NCBI GenBank assembly: GCA_000146045.2
Contig: BK006938.2
Span: 128,001 to 192,000, forward strand
DNA: 64,000 nt
Direction: 5' to 3'
Source: TPA_inf: Saccharomyces
Lineage: Eukaryota
Part shown: positions 5,437 to 41,078 of the stretch, piece after piece
How the letters are laid out: the number at the start of each line of letters is the position of its first letter
Position numbering within the stretch: the stretch's first letter is position 1
Translations under genes and position numbers: made by a program
The notes under the pieces: generated by a model
Databases searched by the model: none
What the model was told of the DNA's origin: nothing
Seen by the model: only the letters and a program-made list of their open reading frames with translations

Positions 5437-6723
5437 ATGACTGCTGCTAAACCAAATCCATATGCTGCCAAACCGGGCGACTATCTTTCTAATGTAAATA
5501 ATTTCCAGTTAATCGATTCGACGCTGAGAGAAGGTGAACAATTTGCCAACGCATTCTTCGATACTGAAAAAAAGATCGAAATTGCTAGAGCCTTGGACGA
5601 TTTCGGTGTGGACTACATCGAGTTAACCTCACCAGTAGCATCTGAACAATCAAGAAAGGACTGTGAAGCTATATGTAAACTAGGTTTAAAGGCCAAGATC
5701 CTTACACACATTCGTTGTCATATGGATGACGCCAAAGTCGCCGTAGAGACTGGTGTCGACGGTGTCGATGTCGTTATCGGCACCTCCAAATTTTTAAGAC
5801 AATATTCCCACGGTAAGGATATGAACTACATCGCCAAGAGTGCTGTTGAAGTCATTGAATTTGTCAAATCCAAAGGTATTGAAATCAGATTTTCCTCTGA
5901 AGATTCCTTCAGAAGTGATCTCGTTGATCTTTTGAACATTTATAAAACCGTTGACAAGATCGGTGTAAATAGAGTCGGTATTGCCGACACAGTTGGATGT
6001 GCCAACCCAAGACAAGTATATGAACTGATCAGAACTTTGAAGAGTGTTGTTTCATGTGACATCGAATGCCATTTCCACAACGATACTGGTTGTGCCATTG
6101 CAAACGCCTACACTGCTTTGGAAGGTGGTGCCAGATTGATTGACGTCAGTGTACTGGGTATTGGTGAAAGAAACGGTATCACTCCTCTAGGTGGGCTCAT
6201 GGCAAGAATGATTGTTGCCGCACCAGACTATGTCAAGTCCAAATACAAGTTGCACAAGATCAGAGACATTGAAAACCTGGTCGCTGATGCTGTGGAAGTT
6301 AACATTCCATTCAACAACCCTATCACCGGGTTCTGTGCATTCACACATAAAGCAGGTATCCATGCCAAGGCCATTTTGGCTAACCCATCTACCTACGAAA
6401 TCTTGGACCCTCACGATTTCGGTATGAAGAGGTATATCCACTTCGCCAACAGACTAACTGGCTGGAACGCCATCAAAGCCAGAGTCGACCAGTTGAACTT
6501 GAACTTGACGGATGACCAAATCAAGGAAGTTACTGCTAAGATTAAGAAGCTGGGTGATGTCAGATCGCTGAATATCGATGATGTTGACTCTATCATCAAG
6601 AACTTCCACGCAGAGGTCAGCACTCCTCAAGTACTATCTGCAAAAAAGAACAAGAAGAATGACAGCGATGTACCGGAACTGGCCACCATCCCCGCCGCCA
6701 AGCGGACTAAGCCATCCGCCTAA
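5437..6723 (+). CDS. LYS20: Homocitrate synthase isozyme (lysine biosynthesis), 428 aa.
   Basis: [66 protein letters not shown]... is an HMGL-like/IPMS-family fold. ATG at 5437 confirmed. Confidence 0.95.
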
Positions 6724-7456: not shown

Positions 7457-7474
7457 TTTTTTTTTTTTTTTTTT
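7457..7474. repeat. T18 homopolymer immediately 3' of INH1.
   Basis: agaagcttttttttttttttttttagaa. Confidence 0.9.
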
Positions 7475-7895
7475 AGAATATTCTTACTCTTTTATAGTCA
7501 AACAGCAGAAAAACTATATAATAATACATCACACTGAGCTTTTGCATTTTCGATAACTATCATTCTAGTTTTCCTCTGGTTTGAATTTTCCTCTTGTCTG
7601 TCTGACTAATGTCACTCATTATTTCCACTTCGCGCAAAGTTCGTCCCAATGCGGAAAGGCATAGAAAGATAGGAACAGTGTGGAACATGGAAAAGTTCCA
7701 AATAACGTCAATAGTCCATACTTAAGATACGAAATTTCAAAATTCCTTCTTTTTTGTTTCAACAAGCTTAGCCTAACACCAAGAATATACTTAGCATCTC
7801 TTCGCATTCAAAATTTCTCTTCCATTCTTTGACGTTTTAAATCATACCTCGTATTCTTTACACAAAAGAAAGATACCTGTGAAATATATCTGAAT

Positions 7896-9539
7896 ATGGT
7901 CCGATTAAATCATGCAGCATCATATTTTATGCCTATTTTCTGCTCCACAAGGCCTCACATAGTGATACTTTCTGCGCTGTTTAGTATTTCACTGTTTTCA
8001 CTATTCTATGCGTCGTCCGAATTACTGCTACACCAGTATGATGATCCATTGATGTTCAAACCAAATTCGCAGGACTATTTCAGGACCTTTCTTTTGGGGC
8101 TTTTTTCACCATTTCTTTATTATTTCCTGAAGACCTTTCTATTCAATATAAATCAAAGGTTTTTAATATTGAACCTGATAGTGGATTTTCCTATCAACGA
8201 CGTCTTTATGCTTTTGATACTGATTGGTTTAGCGTACCCTCAGGTGCAAGATCACGAAGGCGGTACGATCAAGCATAAGGAATGTTCTTGGCACATCATT
8301 CCAAGACAAGCCTATATCTTTGGTATATCATGGGCCCTGGGTGAATTCACCATATGCATAATAGGGAATTTGTTTAACTACCAAGAAATCGCCGATCCAA
8401 ACATTAATAGTGGCTTCACACACCAGGAAAGCGCCAACACTTACTGTAACAATAATGATATGAGCCATAACGATGACTGCGGTTGTAGTACAGAATATCG
8501 CCCCAACGTCGTAGACAGAAGTGATATTACGTTGTCCAAATGTATTGAAGTAAGAAATGACTCATCTTCCATATCGAATAACGTATACTCGTCTGAGTAC
8601 CATCCAATCAAACCTCTACGTTCATCGTCATCAACTTATGGCAGCATACGACAGCAACCTCATGAAAATAAGAAGCAGCTGCATGTACCAGATAATTCGC
8701 AGGACGATACAATTATCATGATGAACCCCATCGACAATTCATTAAAGTTGACAACTCTAGATACGGGTGATTTGAGTTTCCCCATAGACGAAGAACAGCC
8801 CATTTTGAAGAAATCTTTTGGTTATACATGGGCAGTTCCTAATGAAAATACACAAAATACTACTAAAAGCTTCACACCGATAAAGAGATTTATTGCATTT
8901 AGCACGGCATACCAGTTGGTCACCGGTTTATTGTTAATGATATTGGTAGTTGGTAGTAATATCATGTTGACAATTGGGGAATCATTGATTCTGTCGATGT
9001 ATTTCGTCTATGTTCGCGGCCATGAAGGATTATTTACTCCCGTGGTGAACTACTTCGGCTCAAGAACCATTTCAAATTTCATCTTATGCGTAATAATTCC
9101 TTTCATATCTCTAAACTTCCTCATCAACACTTCGATATATTTAAGAAGAGAGCTAGACGATTGGTTTAATAATTCACAGGGGGAGTTTGAGGACGACGAC
9201 GAAAATACTATCAGTAAGAGAGTAGCTACAAATCAAGAGTACCAACATCCACTGAGTGCTAATTACATTTCGATGGATAGTCCTGATGTAATAAATAGCA
9301 GCCCGGGTCACTTCGGGATGAATTCAGGCCAGTTGTTAGGTAATACGACGTTATATTATGGTAGTTTAAATGGGGATGATGATGATATGACCAACGACTC
9401 CGCTTTACTAAGATTCTGCAAGAAGCTAGTCAAAAATTGGAGGGCTTTGGCAAGAAATGATTCTTTTGTACTTGGAGTAATGGTTTCTTGGAGTCTTCTT
9501 GTTTTTGTAACGGGAATACTTTCAACAGTTTATATATAG
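7896..9539 (+). CDS. YDL180W, an uncharacterised multi-pass membrane protein (547 aa).
   Basis: ATG at 7896. It has hydrophobic segments at the N-terminus (…IVILSALFSISLFSLFYASS…, …LILNLIVDFPINDVFMLLILIGLAY…) and C-terminus (…LVTGLLLMILVVGSNIMLTIG…, …VLGVMVSWSLLVFVTGILSTVYI), with a Ser/Asn/Asp-rich soluble middle. Position and length match YDL180W. Confidence 0.85.
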   Translation: MVRLNHAASYFMPIFCSTRPHIVILSALFSISLFSLFYASSELLLHQYDDPLMFKPNSQDYFRTFLLGLFSPFLYYFLKTFLFNINQRFLILNLIVDFPINDVFMLLILIGLAYPQVQDHEGGTIKHKECSWHIIPRQAYIFGISWALGEFTICIIGNLFNYQEIADPNINSGFTHQESANTYCNNNDMSHNDDCGCSTEYRPNVVDRSDITLSKCIEVRNDSSSISNNVYSSEYHPIKPLRSSSSTYGSIRQQPHENKKQLHVPDNSQDDTIIMMNPIDNSLKLTTLDTGDLSFPIDEEQPILKKSFGYTWAVPNENTQNTTKSFTPIKRFIAFSTAYQLVTGLLLMILVVGSNIMLTIGESLILSMYFVYVRGHEGLFTPVVNYFGSRTISNFILCVIIPFISLNFLINTSIYLRRELDDWFNNSQGEFEDDDENTISKRVATNQEYQHPLSANYISMDSPDVINSSPGHFGMNSGQLLGNTTLYYGSLNGDDDDMTNDSALLRFCKKLVKNWRALARNDSFVLGVMVSWSLLVFVTGILSTVYI

Positions 9540-9791
9540 CATATAAGTAACGACCGTGCACATATTAGGGTGTTCATATCTTGAAAAATCTTTATGTTAT
9601 CCATTTTACTTTAGGGGAGGTGGAGCTTAATAATAAAATTTACATAAGAACAACAATCTGTAAGTAATTATAAAAATATATTAAAGGGACATTTTAACCC
9701 TACTTTAAAAGTTTAACTACATCAGTGGTTCATCAATCAAAGGTTATGCAAGGTAGAAATTTGTCCAAAAGAAAATAGATCATGCATCATT

Positions 9792-9929
9792 CAATATGGA
9801 GCTCACACTGTATGCTACAATTTGGCCTCCATTCATAACTGCCAAGATAAAATTTGTTGGCAATATGGAGCTCACACTGTATGCTACAATTTGGCCTCCA
9901 TTCATAACTGCCAAGATAAAATTTGTTGG
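9792..9929. repeat. Perfect tandem duplication of a 69-bp unit (2 full copies plus a 6-bp partial) in the YDL180W-PCL9 intergenic region.
   Basis: caatatggagctcacactgtatgctacaatttggcctccattcataactgccaagataaaatttgttgg occurs at 9792..9860 and identically at 9861..9929, followed by caatat. Confidence 0.95.
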
Positions 9930-9965
9930 CAATATTGAAAATTCTTAAATTAGCGCTGCGCGGAA

Positions 9966-10015
9966 ACCAGCGTCACTAATTTTTTTTTTTATTGCTGCAC
10001 TAAAAAAAAACCAGC
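9966..10015. promoter_or_regulatory. Two ACCAGC (Swi5/Ace2-type) motifs flanking T11/A9 tracts, 275 to 325 bp upstream of PCL9.
   Basis: aACCAGCg at 9966..9971 and aACCAGCt at 10010..10015. PCL9 is known as a Swi5-dependent M/G1 gene. Confidence 0.4.
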
Positions 10016-10290
10016 TCAAGTAGATAATCTTACAAGGGACAAGTAGTCAAGCCTTGCTTATTATAATTCTGTTTAACGGTGCAGTGAGTTTGGACATTCA
10101 TGCAACGTGGTAAATATGTGTCTCTTTGCTTCTGTATTTAAGCATTTGGGCAGCTTGCGGTCAGTAGAAGAGTGCATCGACATTCATAGATCTCTAATAA
10201 CATATATTTAAGTGGATATACGCAAAGAAAGGACAAGAAAACTTGTTTCGGTAACAGCATTATTAATTCTGAAGAAATACGCACAAAGAG

Positions 10291-11205
10291 ATGATTTCTG
10301 ACTACGATGCTCTTTTGCAATTCAACAAAAAACCTGTTTCGCAAGAAATGATTCAGTTCTTAGCCACTTCTACTGCTTCCATAATTAAAATCAGGGAAAA
10401 TAATAATCCAATCCAAGGATGTCGCCCACCAGACTTATCTATCTTCATTAAAAACGTGGTAATTCAGTCAAATGTTCAAACACCAACTTTAATGGCCACA
10501 TCAGTTTATTTAAACAAACTGAAAAGCGTAATACCAAAAAATGTGTACGGTATTAACACCACAAGACATCGGATATTTCTCGGATGCTTGATATTAGCTG
10601 CCAAAACTCTGAACGATTCTTCTCCCTGGAACAAACACTGGACCACGTACACAGAAGGTTTACTCAGAATACGTGAGGTGAATACCATCGAACGAGAACT
10701 ATTAGAATATTTAAATTGGGATGTGAGGATAACTACACCGGATTTGATTGATTCTCTTTCTTACTTCCTCGGGCCTATCAAGGAACAACTATTTTTACAA
10801 AGGAGACAAGAAATGCTGTTGTTCAATGCACCAAGTCCCGGCCAACTGAAAGAATATATAAATCATAGAAGACCGGTTTCGCATTCTAGAACTTCTTCTG
10901 CTATATCGGTTCCTTCACTGACATCCATGGCAACAGTTTCGACAACAGACTCAAGGTCTTCTCTACTGGCAAAATACCAACCGTCCCTACCGTTGGTGGA
11001 ATCTGACAACTTCAACAAAAAAAATCATGTGCCGTTAAGGAATAATAACGATATCTGTAATAATTTCAGGGCAGAGGAAAACATACACTCAGTAAACCAT
11101 ATTGATGTAACAATGGGAAGTTCACCAGTAATGTCGCATAAGCCCACAATTCACCAACGGTTAAATTTTACAAGGAGGGGCTGGTCATCGTTTTTCAAGC
11201 AATAA
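10291..11205 (+). CDS. PCL9: Pho85-family cyclin (304 aa).
   Basis: The cyclin box …RHRIFLGCLILAAKTLNDSSPWNKHWTTYTEGLLRIREVNTIERELLEYLNWDVRI… is present. ATG at 10291. Length matches PCL9. Confidence 0.9.
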   Translation: MISDYDALLQFNKKPVSQEMIQFLATSTASIIKIRENNNPIQGCRPPDLSIFIKNVVIQSNVQTPTLMATSVYLNKLKSVIPKNVYGINTTRHRIFLGCLILAAKTLNDSSPWNKHWTTYTEGLLRIREVNTIERELLEYLNWDVRITTPDLIDSLSYFLGPIKEQLFLQRRQEMLLFNAPSPGQLKEYINHRRPVSHSRTSSAISVPSLTSMATVSTTDSRSSLLAKYQPSLPLVESDNFNKKNHVPLRNNNDICNNFRAEENIHSVNHIDVTMGSSPVMSHKPTIHQRLNFTRRGWSSFFKQ

Positions 11206-11521
11206 TTCTAAGTTACTCGCCTTTTACAAGCTCTATAAATATTCTTTTCCGTTCTTTAGTTGTCTTAACTTTGTACAATATGAATAACCATCGTTTCTAG
11301 GCTACTAAAAAAACACCATACTACATAAACAAATATCTAATAATGAATACTCTTGGCATTCGTCTTGTTTCTCGAGGAATATCGGCCGAGTTTTTTTCAT
11401 TTTGACAGGTTATATAATTCAAAATCTATCTGACTCTGAAAAAGTGGTAATAAATGCATTGACAACTTCTTCTCTTTATTTTACAGACATTAATCCAGCA
11501 CTACAAGTGGCATATAACAAG

Positions 11522-13114
11522 ATGCTAAGAAACATTTTGGTGAGAAGTACTGGCAGCAATTTCAAATTTGCTGGCAGATATATGAAATCATCAGCTCTTT
11601 TAGGATACTATAGAAGAGTTAACTATTATTCGACCAAGATACAAACCAGACTGACTAGCGAAAACTATCCAGACGTGCATCGAGACCCTAGATTCAAAAA
11701 ATTAACGTCCGATGATCTAAATTATTTTAAATCTATTTTATCGGAACAAGAAATATTAAGAGCCAGCGAATCAGAGGATCTTTCATTTTATAATGAAGAT
11801 TGGATGAGAAAGTACAAAGGACAGTCCAAGTTAGTATTGAGACCTAAGTCAGTGGAAAAAGTTTCTTTAATCTTAAATTATTGTAATGATGAAAAAATTG
11901 CCGTTGTCCCACAAGGCGGTAACACGGGGTTGGTAGGTGGTTCTGTGCCCATTTTTGATGAATTAATTCTATCTTTAGCAAATTTAAACAAAATAAGAGA
12001 TTTTGACCCTGTATCAGGTATCTTGAAGTGTGATGCTGGTGTAATCTTGGAAAATGCTAACAATTACGTAATGGAACAAAATTATATGTTTCCGTTGGAT
12101 CTGGGAGCTAAAGGTTCCTGCCATGTTGGTGGCGTGGTTGCAACCAACGCTGGAGGACTAAGGTTATTGCGTTATGGCTCACTACATGGAAGCGTTTTAG
12201 GCTTAGAGGTGGTAATGCCCAATGGTCAAATTGTTAATAGCATGCATTCCATGAGAAAAGACAACACCGGTTATGATCTGAAACAGCTGTTCATTGGCTC
12301 AGAAGGTACTATCGGTATCATCACTGGTGTTTCAATCTTGACTGTTCCTAAGCCAAAAGCGTTTAATGTATCTTACTTGTCTGTTGAAAGTTTTGAAGAC
12401 GTTCAAAAAGTCTTCGTCAGAGCCAGGCAAGAATTATCTGAGATTTTATCCGCTTTTGAATTTATGGATGCTAAATCTCAAGTATTGGCCAAGAGCCAAT
12501 TGAAGGATGCTGCCTTCCCTTTGGAGGATGAGCATCCATTTTATATTCTTATCGAAACGTCAGGGTCAAACAAAGATCACGATGATTCCAAACTTGAAAC
12601 ATTTTTAGAAAACGTCATGGAAGAGGGCATAGTAACGGATGGTGTAGTGGCACAAGATGAAACCGAACTCCAAAACTTGTGGAAGTGGAGAGAAATGATT
12701 CCAGAGGCAAGTCAAGCTAATGGTGGTGTTTACAAATACGATGTTTCTTTACCACTAAAGGACCTATATTCTTTGGTTGAAGCCACTAATGCAAGACTTT
12801 CTGAAGCTGAATTAGTGGGTGATTCGCCCAAACCAGTGGTGGGCGCCATTGGATACGGTCACGTGGGTGATGGTAATCTACACTTAAATGTTGCAGTTAG
12901 AGAGTACAACAAGAACATTGAAAAGACTTTGGAACCATTTGTCTACGAGTTTGTTTCCTCAAAACATGGTTCCGTTAGTGCCGAACATGGGCTAGGTTTC
13001 CAAAAGAAAAATTACATTGGCTATTCTAAGAGCCCGGAAGAGGTCAAGATGATGAAGGATTTGAAGGTTCATTATGATCCTAATGGAATTTTAAACCCTT
13101 ACAAATACATTTGA
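11522..13114 (+). CDS. DLD2: Mitochondrial D-2-hydroxyglutarate / D-lactate dehydrogenase, an FAD-binding oxidoreductase (530 aa).
   Basis: The ORF-track start at 11402 is a TTG artefact. The ATG at 11522 gives [24 protein letters not shown]... and 530 aa. The FAD-binding PCMH motif …[16 protein letters not shown]… is present. Confidence 0.93.
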
Positions 13115-20190: not shown

Positions 20191-21078
20191 ATGGCTACGT
20201 TCAACCCACAAAACGAGATGGAGAACCAGGCACGTGTACAAGAGTACAAGGTCTCCACTGGCAGAGGCGGAGCTGGCAACATCCATAAATCTATGTCCAA
20301 GCCGTCTCCCGTACTTCTTCCATTGAAATCCAATTCAAAGACAGTAGCAAACAACAATAATAACGGTAGCAACCAGGAAAAGGTTCCTCGTTTTGCAATT
20401 GGTAGAGGTGGTGCCGGTAATATCTTTCATGATCCGCACCTGACGAGATCCGCCCAACAACTGGACTCTAACGACAATATCAACTATAACGACGTGATCA
20501 ATGACATCGACGATTATATTTCCCCTATAACTTCGGATATGGTGGATGAAGGTGGGTCAAACCCGGTGACCAACACCAGGTCTCGTATCAGCGCTACAAG
20601 GAGCCATCAGTCTTTGCATGCCACCACTTCGTCTCCGAACAACAACGCCCCAATTGTCGTTGGTAGAGGTGGGGCAGGAAACATTTTCTTCAACAAAAAA
20701 AAGGTGGCCAGCAATGGTGGAAATGAAGAGGATGAGATACGAGGCGGCAATATCGAGGATGAGGATACTATCAATGCAAACGAGGACAACCTGTTTGTGG
20801 TGACTTCCAATGGCAATGCTTTGGCGGCAATCAAGTCCACGTCCAAGAAGCCTAAAAATAAGCTCAAGGGCAAAAGCGCACCGGAAAAATTTGCTATTGG
20901 AAGAGGTGGCGCTGGAAACATAATTTCTCCAAAGTCAAGCAGGAACACTATCAACCATAACTTAAACGATGATGATGAAGATAAGTTTAATTTGAAAGAT
21001 GACAATGGTAAAGAGAAGAAGAAGAAGAAGAAGAAGAAATCAGGGTTTTTCAGTTCTTTGAAAACTATGTTTAATTGA
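20191..21078 (+). CDS. PAR32: Low-complexity phosphoprotein PAR32 (295 aa) with four internal GRGGAGNI repeats and a C-terminal poly-Lys tract.
   Basis: MATFNPQNEMENQARVQEYKVSTGRGGAGNIHKS… The motifs IGRGGAGNIFHD, VGRGGAGNIFFN and IGRGGAGNIISP follow. KKKKKKKK is encoded by (GAA)8. Confidence 0.92.
   Translation: MATFNPQNEMENQARVQEYKVSTGRGGAGNIHKSMSKPSPVLLPLKSNSKTVANNNNNGSNQEKVPRFAIGRGGAGNIFHDPHLTRSAQQLDSNDNINYNDVINDIDDYISPITSDMVDEGGSNPVTNTRSRISATRSHQSLHATTSSPNNNAPIVVGRGGAGNIFFNKKKVASNGGNEEDEIRGGNIEDEDTINANEDNLFVVTSNGNALAAIKSTSKKPKNKLKGKSAPEKFAIGRGGAGNIISPKSSRNTINHNLNDDDEDKFNLKDDNGKEKKKKKKKKSGFFSSLKTMFN
21014..21040 (+). repeat. PAR32: (GAA)8 trinucleotide repeat encoding a Lys8 tract near the PAR32 C-terminus.
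   Basis: gagaagaagaagaagaagaagaagaaa. Confidence 0.9.
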
Positions 21079-21108
21079 AATAACATTCATCAGCAAAATT
21101 AATAAACT

Positions 21109-21116
21109 AAATAAAA

Positions 21117-21167
<51 letters not shown>
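21109..21167. repeat. (AAAT)n tetranucleotide microsatellite, about 13 units, in the convergent PAR32/GLT1 3' intergenic region.
   Basis: ataaaataaataaataaataaataaataaataaataaataaataaataaataat. Confidence 0.95.
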
Positions 21168-32994: not shown

Positions 32995-35154
32995 CTACCA
33001 ACGTATTGAACTATTAAAACCATTACCGAAAGCGCTATTATCACCAACATTGGAAAAATTAACGTTAGCTTTGTCACTTTTGAACTCGTTAAACGAGCTA
33101 CCATTCCCATCTCCCTCCTTCATTGACTTTGTTGCCATCGATAACGGTGGTGACATAAATTCCATCAAACTAATATCACGACCTTTGTTATCGTTCCCAT
33201 CGGTGCGACCAGCATTGCTACCACCATTAGTATTAACAGAAATATTGTTATTACTGGGAGTACGCGACGCTGGTCCAAATGTTGATGAATCTATGTAATG
33301 ATTGGTTTCACTTGCATCGCCGCTTATTGATTTTGGACCACCACAGCGTAAGCACACTACGTTTTTAGCAAAGTTATGATACGTGCACGTGGAACACTTC
33401 CAATCTCCTGCTCTAAATGGCATGTTGGAGCCACATCCTCCCATACCGATATTGGAATTACAATTATTACTATTGTTACCATTGTTATTATTATTATTAT
33501 TATTGGTATTACTATTACTATTGATACTACCATTATGATGATTGTTATTATGATTGTTATTATGATTGTTATTGTTATTACTGTTGTTCCCATTACCATT
33601 CCCATTACCGTTGATGTTGTTATTAATGTTATATCTATTATTGGTCATATTGTTAATATTATTGTTGTTATTGTTAATATTATTATTATAACGATAATTT
33701 GGGGCTATATTATTATTTCCCGAAAAATGATCCGCTATAATTATCGGCGACCCACTGTTCGATGGTGCCATGTTCAATGAATTTTGTCGCGACAATGGCG
33801 TAATTGCAGGAAAATGAGCTCTATTGTATGTTAAAGCTGCTGGCGTGTTGTTAGCAATCATGTTGAACTCAGGGGCACCATAGGGGTGATTCGCTGCAGT
33901 GTTACTAATATTGCTTGAAGATCCCGAGTTCACGCGATTGTTTAAATTATTTCTACTACTGTTAACATTATTGTTTGAGTTCGCAGTATGTATTTGACTA
34001 TTTGATGGTGCCGGAAAAGAACATCTAAAACATGCAGTACGTCTTTGAAAGTTTGAAAAACCACAAGATGGGCAATTCCAGTCACCTGGTCTTGGTTTGT
34101 TTTTACTTTGAGGGAAAGGCGATAAAATTTCTTGAGCCTTATCGAGTACTCCGGTGGAAGAAGGTTGAAGCTCAAGGACATGTTCCACCACCCTTGGTTG
34201 CTTAGTGTTTGCCAGATTAGATAGGATTGATCTCCCATTCAACGCTAGTACTTCAGTTGCTTCTTCATGTGTTTGGAAGACAACAAATCCTGAGATACTA
34301 TCTTGATCTTCCACATAGGGACTGTTATTTAGACTCCAGTTATTATTAACGTTAGACGTATCTTCTACGATGTTTTTGACAGTCCAAAACCCAACTGGTC
34401 TAACACCATATTGGGTAAACCATGATTCCAACTCACTTTGAGTTGTGTCGGGCGGTAAATTGTTCATGTACAAAATCTTAGATTTCTCTTGCAAAAACGC
34501 TCTAATATCGGTGTGTGAGTCATATGGTTTTGTTAAGACAGATTCCATATCTTCAGGGGAAGTACACTTTTTGTGCAATTGTATTAATATATCCGTTGTC
34601 CTTTTTAAAAGAGAGTATATCTCTGGAACAGAGCCTGCCTCTTCAGTTGGGATTGAAACTTCCAATATTCTAACTATTTCGTCCAAATCCTTCGTATTTT
34701 TGGCTGCATTAATACTAATACTTTTAGTATTACAATTGTTGTTGGAGATTGCTTTCTTTTGTCCCAAAATCTCCGGATGGTTGACACACCATCTATCGAA
34801 TTCCTTCCATAAGTCAAATACTTTCGGATGTTGTAAATAAGAAGTAAGAATAAACCCATCATCTCTCGCTTGACGTGGTAAGGTAACACGGATATGCCAT
34901 GTTGAATACAGGGAAACAAGAACAAAGTCGTCGTTACCAATAACGTCATGAATATCCTTGTCCAATTGCACCATTGCACTCTCCAAACTCTTTGTCGTCC
35001 CGTTTACTTCAATGCTCGGTAAAGAATTGGTCCCATAATGGCATACTAATGTTTCAGCATTCACAATTTGAAATGCTATATTCGCAATGCGACATTGATC
35101 CTTGGGGGTATCTGGCAAATGCGCAACTTGCAGCTCTAGTACCACATAGTGCAT
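32995..35154 (-). CDS. NRP1: Asn-rich RNA-binding protein with an RRM and two RanBP2-type zinc fingers (719 aa).
   Basis: The ATG (reverse complement 35152..35154) gives MHYVVLELQVAHLPDTP…. The RanBP2 fingers are DWNCPSCGFSNFQRRTACFRCSFP and DWKCSTCTYHNFAKNVVCLRCGGP. There is a long poly-N / HNNN region. The 12-codon upstream extension is an artefact. Confidence 0.92.
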   Translation of the reverse strand: MHYVVLELQVAHLPDTPKDQCRIANIAFQIVNAETLVCHYGTNSLPSIEVNGTTKSLESAMVQLDKDIHDVIGNDDFVLVSLYSTWHIRVTLPRQARDDGFILTSYLQHPKVFDLWKEFDRWCVNHPEILGQKKAISNNNCNTKSISINAAKNTKDLDEIVRILEVSIPTEEAGSVPEIYSLLKRTTDILIQLHKKCTSPEDMESVLTKPYDSHTDIRAFLQEKSKILYMNNLPPDTTQSELESWFTQYGVRPVGFWTVKNIVEDTSNVNNNWSLNNSPYVEDQDSISGFVVFQTHEEATEVLALNGRSILSNLANTKQPRVVEHVLELQPSSTGVLDKAQEILSPFPQSKNKPRPGDWNCPSCGFSNFQRRTACFRCSFPAPSNSQIHTANSNNNVNSSRNNLNNRVNSGSSSNISNTAANHPYGAPEFNMIANNTPAALTYNRAHFPAITPLSRQNSLNMAPSNSGSPIIIADHFSGNNNIAPNYRYNNNINNNNNNINNMTNNRYNINNNINGNGNGNGNNSNNNNNHNNNHNNNHHNGSINSNSNTNNNNNNNNGNNSNNCNSNIGMGGCGSNMPFRAGDWKCSTCTYHNFAKNVVCLRCGGPKSISGDASETNHYIDSSTFGPASRTPSNNNISVNTNGGSNAGRTDGNDNKGRDISLMEFMSPPLSMATKSMKEGDGNGSSFNEFKSDKANVNFSNVGDNSAFGNGFNSSIRW
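33430..33720 (-). repeat. NRP1: AAT/AAC-rich coding microsatellite-like region that encodes the poly-Asn prion-like domain of NRP1.
   Basis: The plus strand is dominated by att/gtt triplets (…attgttattattattattattattggtattactattactatt…). It translates on the minus strand to …NNNINNNNNNINN…NGNGNGNGNNSNNNNNHNNNHNNNHHN…NNNNNNNNGNNSNN…. Confidence 0.9.
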
Positions 35155-35448
35155 AATTTCTGTATCAAAAATCACAATAGCAATGCACAATTATCCTAGC
35201 GCTCTTCTTTAGTAATGCTATTTGCATCAAAACCAACTTATTAAACTTGTATGTGTTGAAAAATTTTTCACTTTAAACTTTTCCACTGGGCATCGGCATC
35301 GGAGAATGAAAATATATTACCAAAGTCACATTAAACAAGTACATGACATTACTTAAAGAAAACCCTTTATAATAGGCACTACTATTACTACTGTTACTAA
35401 TTTACAATTATATATGTATATATGTAGATACACAAAGTTATGGAACGC

Positions 35449-39390: not shown

Positions 39391-39713
39391 GGTGAAAAAT
39401 TCCATCAGCCATCTCAAGTGGAGGAACACATCGAAGCGAGCAAAAAGATGACAGAGTTAAACAGCAATAGAACCAGCGGCTGCAGTACGAATTCCTATTG
39501 CAAGTCTTACGGAAGGTTGGTGGGGCCTTATGTTGTTCAAAGTACTTGATTTTGGAAGTATGGTTGTCTGAAATTGTGGCTACGTATAGAGAATCATCCG
39601 GGTAATGATGAAAGTTTCTTTCAATGACAAATAGGAGTTTTAAGAAGTAGAAGAAAGAGCCGTTCGTATGAGTGCCAGGATCAGAAGGAAAGGGAGCAAG
39701 AGGCAGAACAATC

Positions 39714-41078
39714 ATGTCGAAACAATTTGTTAGATCTGCGAAGAATTTGGTGAAAGGGTACTCTTCTACCCAGGTCCTGGTAAGAAATGCAACGTCAAAC
39801 GACAATCATCAAGTGTCCAAGGACTCGTTAATTGAGCTGGCTGAAAAATCATATGATAGCGCAGATTTCTTCGAAATCATGGATATGCTGGACAAAAGAC
39901 TTAACGACAAGGGCAAATACTGGAGGCATATCGCAAAGGCATTGACAGTAATAGATTACTTGATCAGGTTTGGTAGTGAGAATTGTGTTCTTTGGTGTAG
40001 AGAAAATTTATACATCATCAAGACATTGAAGGAGTTCAGGCACGAGGACGATGAGGGCATAGATCAAGGTCAAATCGTTAGGGTCAAAGCAAAAGAATTG
40101 ACTGCATTACTATCTGATGACGAAAGACTGAACGAGGAAAGGAACATGAATATCAAGGGAAGAAACAGGAAAGGAAGAAGAAGAAGGGGAACTGGGCGCA
40201 GTGATGAAAATGACGATGATTTGCAAAGAGCCATTAGTGCTAGCAGGTTGACGGCGGAAGAAGACGAAAGAAGAAGAAAACAGGACGAGGATTATGAAAC
40301 AGCTTTGCAGTTGAGCAAAGAAGAAGAGGAGCTAAAAAGATTGCAAGATTTACAAAGAATGCAACAACAGCAAGGCCAACAACAATTGCAACAACCTATG
40401 TATTATGATATTTTTGGTAACCCAATCACTCCTGAGGAATACGCACAATTTCAATTGCAACAACAGCAACAACAGCAACAACAACAGTTGCAACAACAAC
40501 CAATGTACTACGATGTATTCGGGAATCCTATAACACCCGAAGAACTAGCACAGTTTCAACAACAACAACAACTACAGGAACAACAGTACTTAGCTTCTAT
40601 GCAACAGCAGCAACAGGCAATGTCCAACAATCCATTTGCCAAATCAGAACAGAGCTCAAGTTCACCAAAACGGAACCAACTAGTAGCAGCTTCTTCTCCA
40701 CAGCAACTGCAACAACAAAAACAACAAGAGCCATTGATTCAAAACAGGACAGGCAATCAATCAATGACAGACAAGTATAGTAAACTAAACGAGCTACTAG
40801 CCACAGGAACAGGTATTGATACATTCGGAAATGTAGGGGAGGCTCGTATTCCTGCCCAACATACGAAGACAGGAACATTCATCAATTCTCAAGGAACAGG
40901 ATATAGGCAAGTATCGGATGATCCAAACCACAATCCGTTTTTGAACAGTCAGTATACAGGTTTACCAAGCACTAGCGTCGTACCAACACAAACAGGCTAT
41001 GGCTTTGGTAACCAGTCTCAACAGCAGTCTCAAAATAATGGCTCAAATAACCGGGGATATACTCTAATTGATTTATGA
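39714..41078 (+). CDS. ENT1: Epsin; an ENTH domain followed by UIMs, NPF motifs and a C-terminal clathrin box (454 aa).
   Basis: ATG at 39714 gives MSKQFVRSAKNLVKGYSSTQV…, the ENTH domain. The UIMs are …DLQRAISASRLTAEEDE… and …YETALQLSKEEEE…. There are two NPF motifs. The protein ends …RGYTLIDL. The ORF-track start 39672 is GTG. Confidence 0.94.
   Translation: MSKQFVRSAKNLVKGYSSTQVLVRNATSNDNHQVSKDSLIELAEKSYDSADFFEIMDMLDKRLNDKGKYWRHIAKALTVIDYLIRFGSENCVLWCRENLYIIKTLKEFRHEDDEGIDQGQIVRVKAKELTALLSDDERLNEERNMNIKGRNRKGRRRRGTGRSDENDDDLQRAISASRLTAEEDERRRKQDEDYETALQLSKEEEELKRLQDLQRMQQQQGQQQLQQPMYYDIFGNPITPEEYAQFQLQQQQQQQQQQLQQQPMYYDVFGNPITPEELAQFQQQQQLQEQQYLASMQQQQQAMSNNPFAKSEQSSSSPKRNQLVAASSPQQLQQQKQQEPLIQNRTGNQSMTDKYSKLNELLATGTGIDTFGNVGEARIPAQHTKTGTFINSQGTGYRQVSDDPNHNPFLNSQYTGLPSTSVVPTQTGYGFGNQSQQQSQNNGSNNRGYTLIDL

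Follow-up and report, generated by a model that had tools for sequence, protein, structure and literature searches.

Between YDL180W/AIT1 and PCL9, a segment of 69 bp is present twice in the window, that is, in the whole 64-kb stretch of yeast DNA that was analysed. The two copies lie head to tail, do not differ at a single position and stand just upstream of a cyclin promoter. The locus thus raises the question of how and when the second copy arose, and of whether it matters to the gene that follows it. The feature is best read as a microhomology-mediated tandem duplication, the product of one recent event on the S288C/BY haplotype and most likely neutral, a reading to which we give a probability of roughly 0.88.

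An exact tandem repeat between AIT1 and PCL9

The repeat was detected by TRF at window positions 9792–9935 (S288C chrIV 137792–137935), with a period of 69, 2.1 copies, 100% matches, 0 indels and a score of 288. In a direct string comparison 9792–9860 and 9861–9929 were the same sequence, and the period-69 identity was found to cover exactly 144 bp, from 9792 to 9935 (2.09 copies), stopping at T/G on the left and, on the right, at the T that follows CAATAT. The perfect 69-bp head-to-tail duplication with a 6-bp start of a third copy that had been reported in a first-pass annotation of this DNA is therefore confirmed by both methods. So perfect a tandem match has an expectation of ~1e-36 by chance in 64 kb, and no further copy of the unit was found elsewhere in the 64-kb window, on either strand, with up to 15 mismatches allowed. 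The GC content of the unit is 39%, against 38% for the window. The features of the region are collected in Table 1; the k-mer TTGTTGGCAATATGGAGC spans the junction of the two-copy allele.

The flanking ORFs are YDL180W/Ait1 and Pcl9 of S. cerevisiae by near-identity to the named proteins, and the gene names given earlier from the letters alone were right. The distance from the YDL180W stop codon (9539) to the start of the repeat is 253 bp, that from the repeat to the PCL9 ATG (10291) is 356 bp, and the first conserved Swi5-type site follows 31 bp after the repeat; on measurement, the distances estimated previously and the ACCAGC positions 9966 and 10010 proved correct. The duplication lengthens the AIT1–PCL9 spacer from 682 bp to 751 bp. 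Literature searches that named YDL180W together with PCL9, or YDL179W together with an indel or cis effects, returned nothing relevant.

Other repeats of the window are a CAA/CAG-rich one with a 105-bp period at 40361–40585 (2.2 copies, 77% identical), inside the ORF 39672–41078; an (AAAT)17.5 tract at 21096–21167, just 3′ of an ORF ending at 21078; and ATT-rich repeats of 6, 9 and 21 bp at 33457–33684, inside the minus-strand ORF 32995–35190.

Table 1. Coordinates of the repeat, its flanking genes and the conserved PCL9 promoter elements (window positions)
Feature	Position	Strand	Remarks
YDL180W / AIT1 ORF	7896..9539	+	547 aa
AAATTTGT octamer, upstream	9757..9764		pairs with AAATTTGT at the unit end, 9850–9857 and 9919–9926
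Copy 1 of the 69-bp unit, CAATATGGAGCTCACACTGTATGCTACAATTTGGCCTCCATTCATAACTGCCAAGATAAAATTTGTTGG	9792..9860		TRF; exact identity to copy 2
Proximal CAATAT microhomology	9792..9797		first 6 bp of the unit
Copy 2 of the 69-bp unit	9861..9929		100% identical to copy 1
Novel junction ...TTTGTTGG/CAATATGGAGC...	9861..9866		only in the duplicated allele
Distal CAATAT microhomology	9930..9935		6-bp partial third start
First ACCAGC (Swi5/Ace2-type)	9966..9971	+	within AAACCAGCGTCAC, invariant in 6 Saccharomyces species; downstream of the repeat
Second ACCAGC (Swi5/Ace2-type)	10010..10015	+	conserved in 5/6 species; 44 bp from the first
TATTTAA, TATA-like element of the PCL9 promoter	10135..10141	+	conserved
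PCL9 (YDL179W) ORF	10291..11205	+	304 aa; Cyclin_N domain

Two copies are found on a single haplotype

The locus was taken from other assemblies by exact-protein look-ups with PCL9, AIT1, INH1 and DLD2 and by one metagenome pattern scan, which gives a non-random sample that favours the longest contigs with proteins identical to those of the window. Besides the window, 34 distinct S. cerevisiae sources were obtained: one copy is present in 30 of them (intergenic length 680–683 bp), two copies in two (751 bp), and the other two have deletion alleles; some of the one-copy calls may be affected by short-read assembly, which could collapse a two-copy repeat. The metagenome scan, for the unit end followed by CAATAT, yielded just one contig, which is from S. 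cerevisiae and has one copy. One Logan contig (L015) stops at window position 9741 and is uninformative on copy number.

Both two-copy sources share the local haplotype of the window. The first (L011), the one inspected representative of a group with 16 further similar assemblies, is 100% identical to it across 7644 bp; the second (L014) matches the window exactly over 7458–12539, its only differences being 8 SNPs at 5721–6087 and one 1-bp indel. The remaining strains are ~0.2–0.8% divergent from the window, and three of them (L006, L009 and L010) have private SNPs within their single unit. The Logan short-read contig L016 has one copy, yet it equals the window across 4.7 kb; it could represent a reversion, a relative from before the duplication or a collapse in assembly.

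The 8 SNPs of L014 all fall within 367 bp of the LYS20 ORF (5437–6723), the rest of its 7.6 kb being that of the window. Such a cluster resembles a short tract of gene conversion or recombination, for which the paralogue LYS21 is a possible donor.

The same length difference is found in a published cross. The BY/RM marker chrIV:137791_TCAATATGG...TTGTTGG/T (T+69bp/T) is made of an anchor T, which is window base 9791, and exactly this 69-bp unit (Albert et al. 2018, Source data 7, PMC6072440). The first allele of a marker is that of BY (the reference) and the second that of RM (Albert et al. 2018, PMC6072440), so BY/S288C has two copies and RM11-1a one. The marker also fixes the window at S288C chrIV 128001–192000. 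The indel was called from reads and is a genotyped marker in 1,012 BY x RM segregants (Albert et al. 2018, PMC6072440). The length polymorphism is already catalogued in published variant sets. The strain-specific polymorphism suspected in the first-pass annotation is upheld, with one copy in 30/34 sources and in RM11-1a and two copies on the reference haplotype only.

These data also bear on whether the pair might be a sequencing or assembly artefact of the reference, short tandem duplications being a classic assembly problem. An artefact is effectively refuted already and its probability is negligible: two further assemblies show the pair as well, one of them 8 SNPs off the window, and the 69-bp indel segregates in reads from BY x RM, where it was genotyped in over a thousand progeny.

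Ancestral state and origin of the duplication

Orthologous intergenic regions were obtained from five sister species, S. paradoxus, S. mikatae, S. kudriavzevii, S. arboricola and S. eubayanus. One diverged copy of the unit (71–80% identity) is present in S. paradoxus and a 21-bp trace in S. kudriavzevii, and nothing in the intergenic regions of S. mikatae, S. arboricola and S. eubayanus matches the unit significantly. For the alignment, the single-copy alleles and the S. paradoxus copy were set against copy 2 with a gap over copy 1, a placement that is arbitrary given identical copies. The species beyond S. paradoxus hardly align across the unit and have at most one copy that aligns weakly. 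The sister species thus show a single copy to be the ancestral condition and the duplication to be derived within S. cerevisiae. Conservation of the duplication in all strains and sister species, which had been proposed as the outcome that would speak for function instead of recent slippage, was not what the comparison gave; the sister species are single-copy, which favours recency.

The length of the spacer varies across the genus from 591 to 776 bp around a fixed PCL9 core promoter. In S. paradoxus, S. arboricola and S. eubayanus, ~40–80 bp of extra sequence is found in the AIT1 3′ flank (at window ~9633 for the S. paradoxus source L022), absent from S. cerevisiae.

The opposite polarity, with two copies as the older S. 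cerevisiae state and single-copy alleles produced by repeated collapse, is very improbable. [quoted passage not shown] However, all five sister species are single-copy or without the unit, two-copy alleles occur on one haplotype only, and single-copy alleles occur on many diverged haplotypes, some of them with private SNPs in the unit (L006, L009, L010).

The ends of the segment indicate how the second copy may have formed. The intergenic region of single-copy alleles has CAATAT at its positions 253 and 322 and at no other; the two hexamers are 69 bp apart and mark both ends of the segment, in the arrangement CAATAT-N63-CAATAT. A microhomology of 6 bp has a probability of ~3e-4 by chance. No CAATAT occurs in the S. 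paradoxus intergenic region. From the microhomology signature we infer a slippage step, in which the ancestral S. cerevisiae spacer would have held two CAATAT hexamers 69 bp apart and, in replication, the nascent strand would have left the distal hexamer and re-paired with the proximal one; the intervening segment would then have been copied twice, leaving unit-unit-CAATAT. Unequal sister-chromatid exchange at the same hexamers, which would leave the same product, may have taken the place of slippage. The duplication would have arisen once and recently, on the local haplotype of the S288C/BY laboratory reference, and the segment affected is spacer DNA of low conservation, with the AIT1 3′ end on one side and the conserved upstream activating region of PCL9 on the other.

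A recent duplication by slippage had been put forward in the first-pass annotation. Both the CAATAT at either end of the unit and the haplotype distribution support it, with slippage as the presumed mechanism. The accompanying argument, that perfect identity of the copies implies recency, is weak on its own, because two 69-bp copies at ~0.4% within-species divergence would still be identical with a probability of ~0.76. What shows the duplication to be recent is its restriction to one haplotype.

Sequence content of the unit

The interval 9781–9945 was searched with 25 yeast transcription-factor, ARS and TATA consensus patterns, and GATAA was the sole match. There is no ACCAGC in this interval, the unit thus contributing no Swi5/Ace2 module, and the ARS consensus WTTTAYRTTTW is absent from both of its strands. 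No Rfam match at E<=1 was obtained in 9400–10400, and the DNA folds no better than shuffled sequences, with z-scores of -0.53, -1.53 and -0.98 for the unit on both strands and the whole array.

ORFs of 50 aa span both copies, at 9796–9948 on the plus strand and 9780–9932 on the minus strand; they exist because 69 is a multiple of 3 (23 codons). They were considered as coding sequences and rejected, since the plus-strand ATG is GTG in S. paradoxus and the sequence is unalignable further out. A small protein or a structured RNA encoded by the unit, for which these open frames through both copies on both strands might be taken to speak, is accordingly hard to credit: besides the lost start codon, the ORF of the single-copy allele is only 27 aa long, and the Rfam search and the folding scores speak against an RNA. 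Devoid of any recognisable functional element, the unit is, we infer, most likely selectively neutral.

Deletion alleles in the same stretch

The two sources with deletion alleles have lost all or most of the unit. In one of them (L030, GCA_947369865.1) a 93-bp deletion lies exactly between the two AAATTTGT octamers, corresponds to window 9765–9857 of the single-copy allele and removes the whole unit. Independent of the duplication, it adds a further microhomology-mediated rearrangement to the same 150 bp. The other (L004, GCA_000568365.1), which represents five further similar assemblies, has two deletions of ~39 and ~38 bp, at window ~9783–9821 and ~9914–9951, and retains only 23 bp of the unit, TTGGCCTCCATTCATAACTGCCA. 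Since the unit is missing from the first and mostly missing from the second, the segment is dispensable in nature.

In the doubly deleted allele, the second deletion reaches into TTAAATTAGCGC, a moderately conserved block that immediately precedes the first Swi5-type site, and CG>AC is found at the 5′ flank of this site.

The unit lies outside the conserved PCL9 promoter

PCL9 is a late-M/G1 cyclin under the control of Swi5. This control is said to have been described by Aerne and colleagues in 1998, and a study by Tennyson from the same year is reportedly another source for PCL9 as a late-M/G1, Swi5-controlled cyclin. Nucleosome occupancy at the PCL9 promoter changes with the cell cycle (PMC1570381). 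In the six-species alignment conservation starts just past the repeat, the share of columns identical in all six species being 49% in 9945–10075, but 14% in the unit and 9% in the AIT1 3′ flank. The conserved promoter elements include TTAAATTAGCGCTGCGCGGAAACCAGCGTCAC, which carries the first ACCAGC (9966), a T-run and an A-run, AAAAACCAGCT with the second ACCAGC (10010), GTCAAGCCTTGCTTATTAT at 10046–10064 and TGTATTTAAG at 10133–10142. Every one of these elements stands on the PCL9 side of the repeat, ahead of the ATG. The duplication hence leaves them as far from one another and from the start as before, and adds 69 bp only toward the 3′ end of the upstream gene. The suggestion that it could alter PCL9 promoter spacing is not sustained, both AACCAGC sites, the T and A tracts, GTCAAGCCTTGCTTATTAT and TATTTAA all being downstream of the repeat.

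The two AAACCAGC motifs (window 9964–10015) are direct repeats 44 bp apart and flank a near-perfect inverted T11...A9, whose arms at 9982–9995 and 9997–10010 are 93% complementary. This arrangement is conserved across six Saccharomyces species, the second ACCAGC being kept in 5/6.

A subtler effect on PCL9 can be envisaged, in which copy number tunes transcription, for example through the placement of nucleosomes or through a greater distance between the Swi5 sites and AIT1 termination or read-through, and the indel is a cis-regulatory variant. A repeat that precedes the PCL9 ATG by 356 bp and the nearest conserved Swi5-type site by 31 bp would be suitably placed for such a role. About 25% of yeast promoters have tandem repeats, the variation of which is associated with expression divergence (PMC3899988). 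In addition, the PCL9 mRNA level is heritable (h2 ~0.39) in BY x RM, the cross in which the 69-bp indel segregates (Albert et al. 2018, PMC6072440). Against these points, the unit is outside the conserved promoter block 9945–10145 and is itself unconserved; it has no cell-cycle factor motif, and a GC content at background (39% against 38%) sets it apart from the poly(dA:dT)-like tracts that exclude nucleosomes. The natural strain L030 does without it, as largely does L004, and one versus two copies on a single haplotype give no sign of repeated copy-number change. We therefore regard a role in tuning PCL9 as improbable.

Expression was mapped in the same cross. The sole place of the 69-bp indel marker in its local-eQTL/ASE table is as the right-hand limit of the confidence interval for the INH1 local eQTL, which has a LOD of 13.7 and its peak at chrIV:137410, and the AIT1/YDL180W local eQTL has a LOD of 122 and its peak at chrIV:135298 (Albert et al. 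2018, PMC6072440). PCL9/YDL179W has no entry in this table, an absence that is not conclusive because only genes with allele-specific expression data are covered there (PMC6072440). The AIT1 peak (window 7298) is inside the INH1 ORF and the INH1 peak (window 9410) inside the AIT1 ORF.

The several rearrangements upstream of PCL9 might also be viewed together. The 150 bp upstream of its Swi5 sites would then be a hotspot of microhomology rearrangement, with alleles that change PCL9 M/G1 expression or AIT1 3′-end formation or read-through. Three independent events can be cited for it, namely the 69-bp duplication, the 93-bp deletion between AAATTTGT repeats and the ~39 + ~38 bp double deletion. 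If it were true, the 69-bp indel would act in BY x RM as a causal variant of regulation in cis; we think it unlikely.

Consequences of a duplicated reference allele

Taken as a single, most likely neutral duplication by microhomology, the repeat has very small biological weight, and its interest is that of a textbook example of how a tandem repeat is born, caught at the two-copy stage. The practical consequences concern the reference sequence. As S288C carries the minority allele, read mappers will call a 69-bp deletion in most strains, and reference-based analyses of PCL9 promoter length or motif distance overstate the spacer by 69 bp. The site is, moreover, a marker that can be sized by PCR and that tells the S288C type from most other haplotypes.

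Comparison with known tandem repeats

The closest known counterparts are the MTDs, which are defined by 4–25 nt of microhomology at 3–500 nt spacing (PMC8639346). Duplications of 55, 68 and 92 bp with 5–8 bp of microhomology have been described, and they are attributed to replication slippage and Okazaki-fragment processing (PMC8639346; bioRxiv 10.64898/2026.02.28.708716). Among the longer insertions of natural isolates, MTDs account for about half (Dan et al. 2021 PNAS, PMC8639346; Wei et al. 2026, bioRxiv 10.64898/2026.02.28.708716). The repeat upstream of PCL9 shares with MTDs an exact head-to-tail copy, a CAATAT pair flanking the unduplicated segment and a single-copy state that is ancestral. 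A short identical pair bounds the segment, one microhomology lies at the junction and one after the second copy, and both the size and the microhomology are within the range of MTDs. Known cases, however, are mostly subclonal, fast-reverting and often within genes, whereas the PCL9-upstream repeat is fixed in a strain lineage, intergenic and without known phenotype.

The variable promoter repeats of Vinces et al. 2009, as covered in a review (PMC3899988), are likewise TRF-detected, upstream, intergenic and of strain-variable copy number. The present repeat differs in having only two copies of a 69-bp unit of average composition, distal to the conserved elements and with no sign of hypermutability. 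Judged from its sequence, it has neither the location nor the composition of such repeats, as it lies upstream of the conserved block 9945–10145 and has a GC content of 39% against 38%.

In its tandem arrangement, its unit of more than 10 bp and its alleles with 0, 1 and 2 copies, the locus resembles a minisatellite or VNTR (definition in PMC3899988). The recurrent change of a VNTR was not seen among these alleles, there being one expanded allele on one haplotype, and the 0-copy alleles being unrelated deletions. Yeast minisatellites such as the intragenic repeats of FLO1 and FLO11 (PMC3899988) also have units above 10 bp that lie head to tail and are length-polymorphic. Unlike them, the AIT1–PCL9 repeat lies in non-coding DNA, stops at two copies and gives no sign of array dynamics; it is at most a minisatellite at birth.
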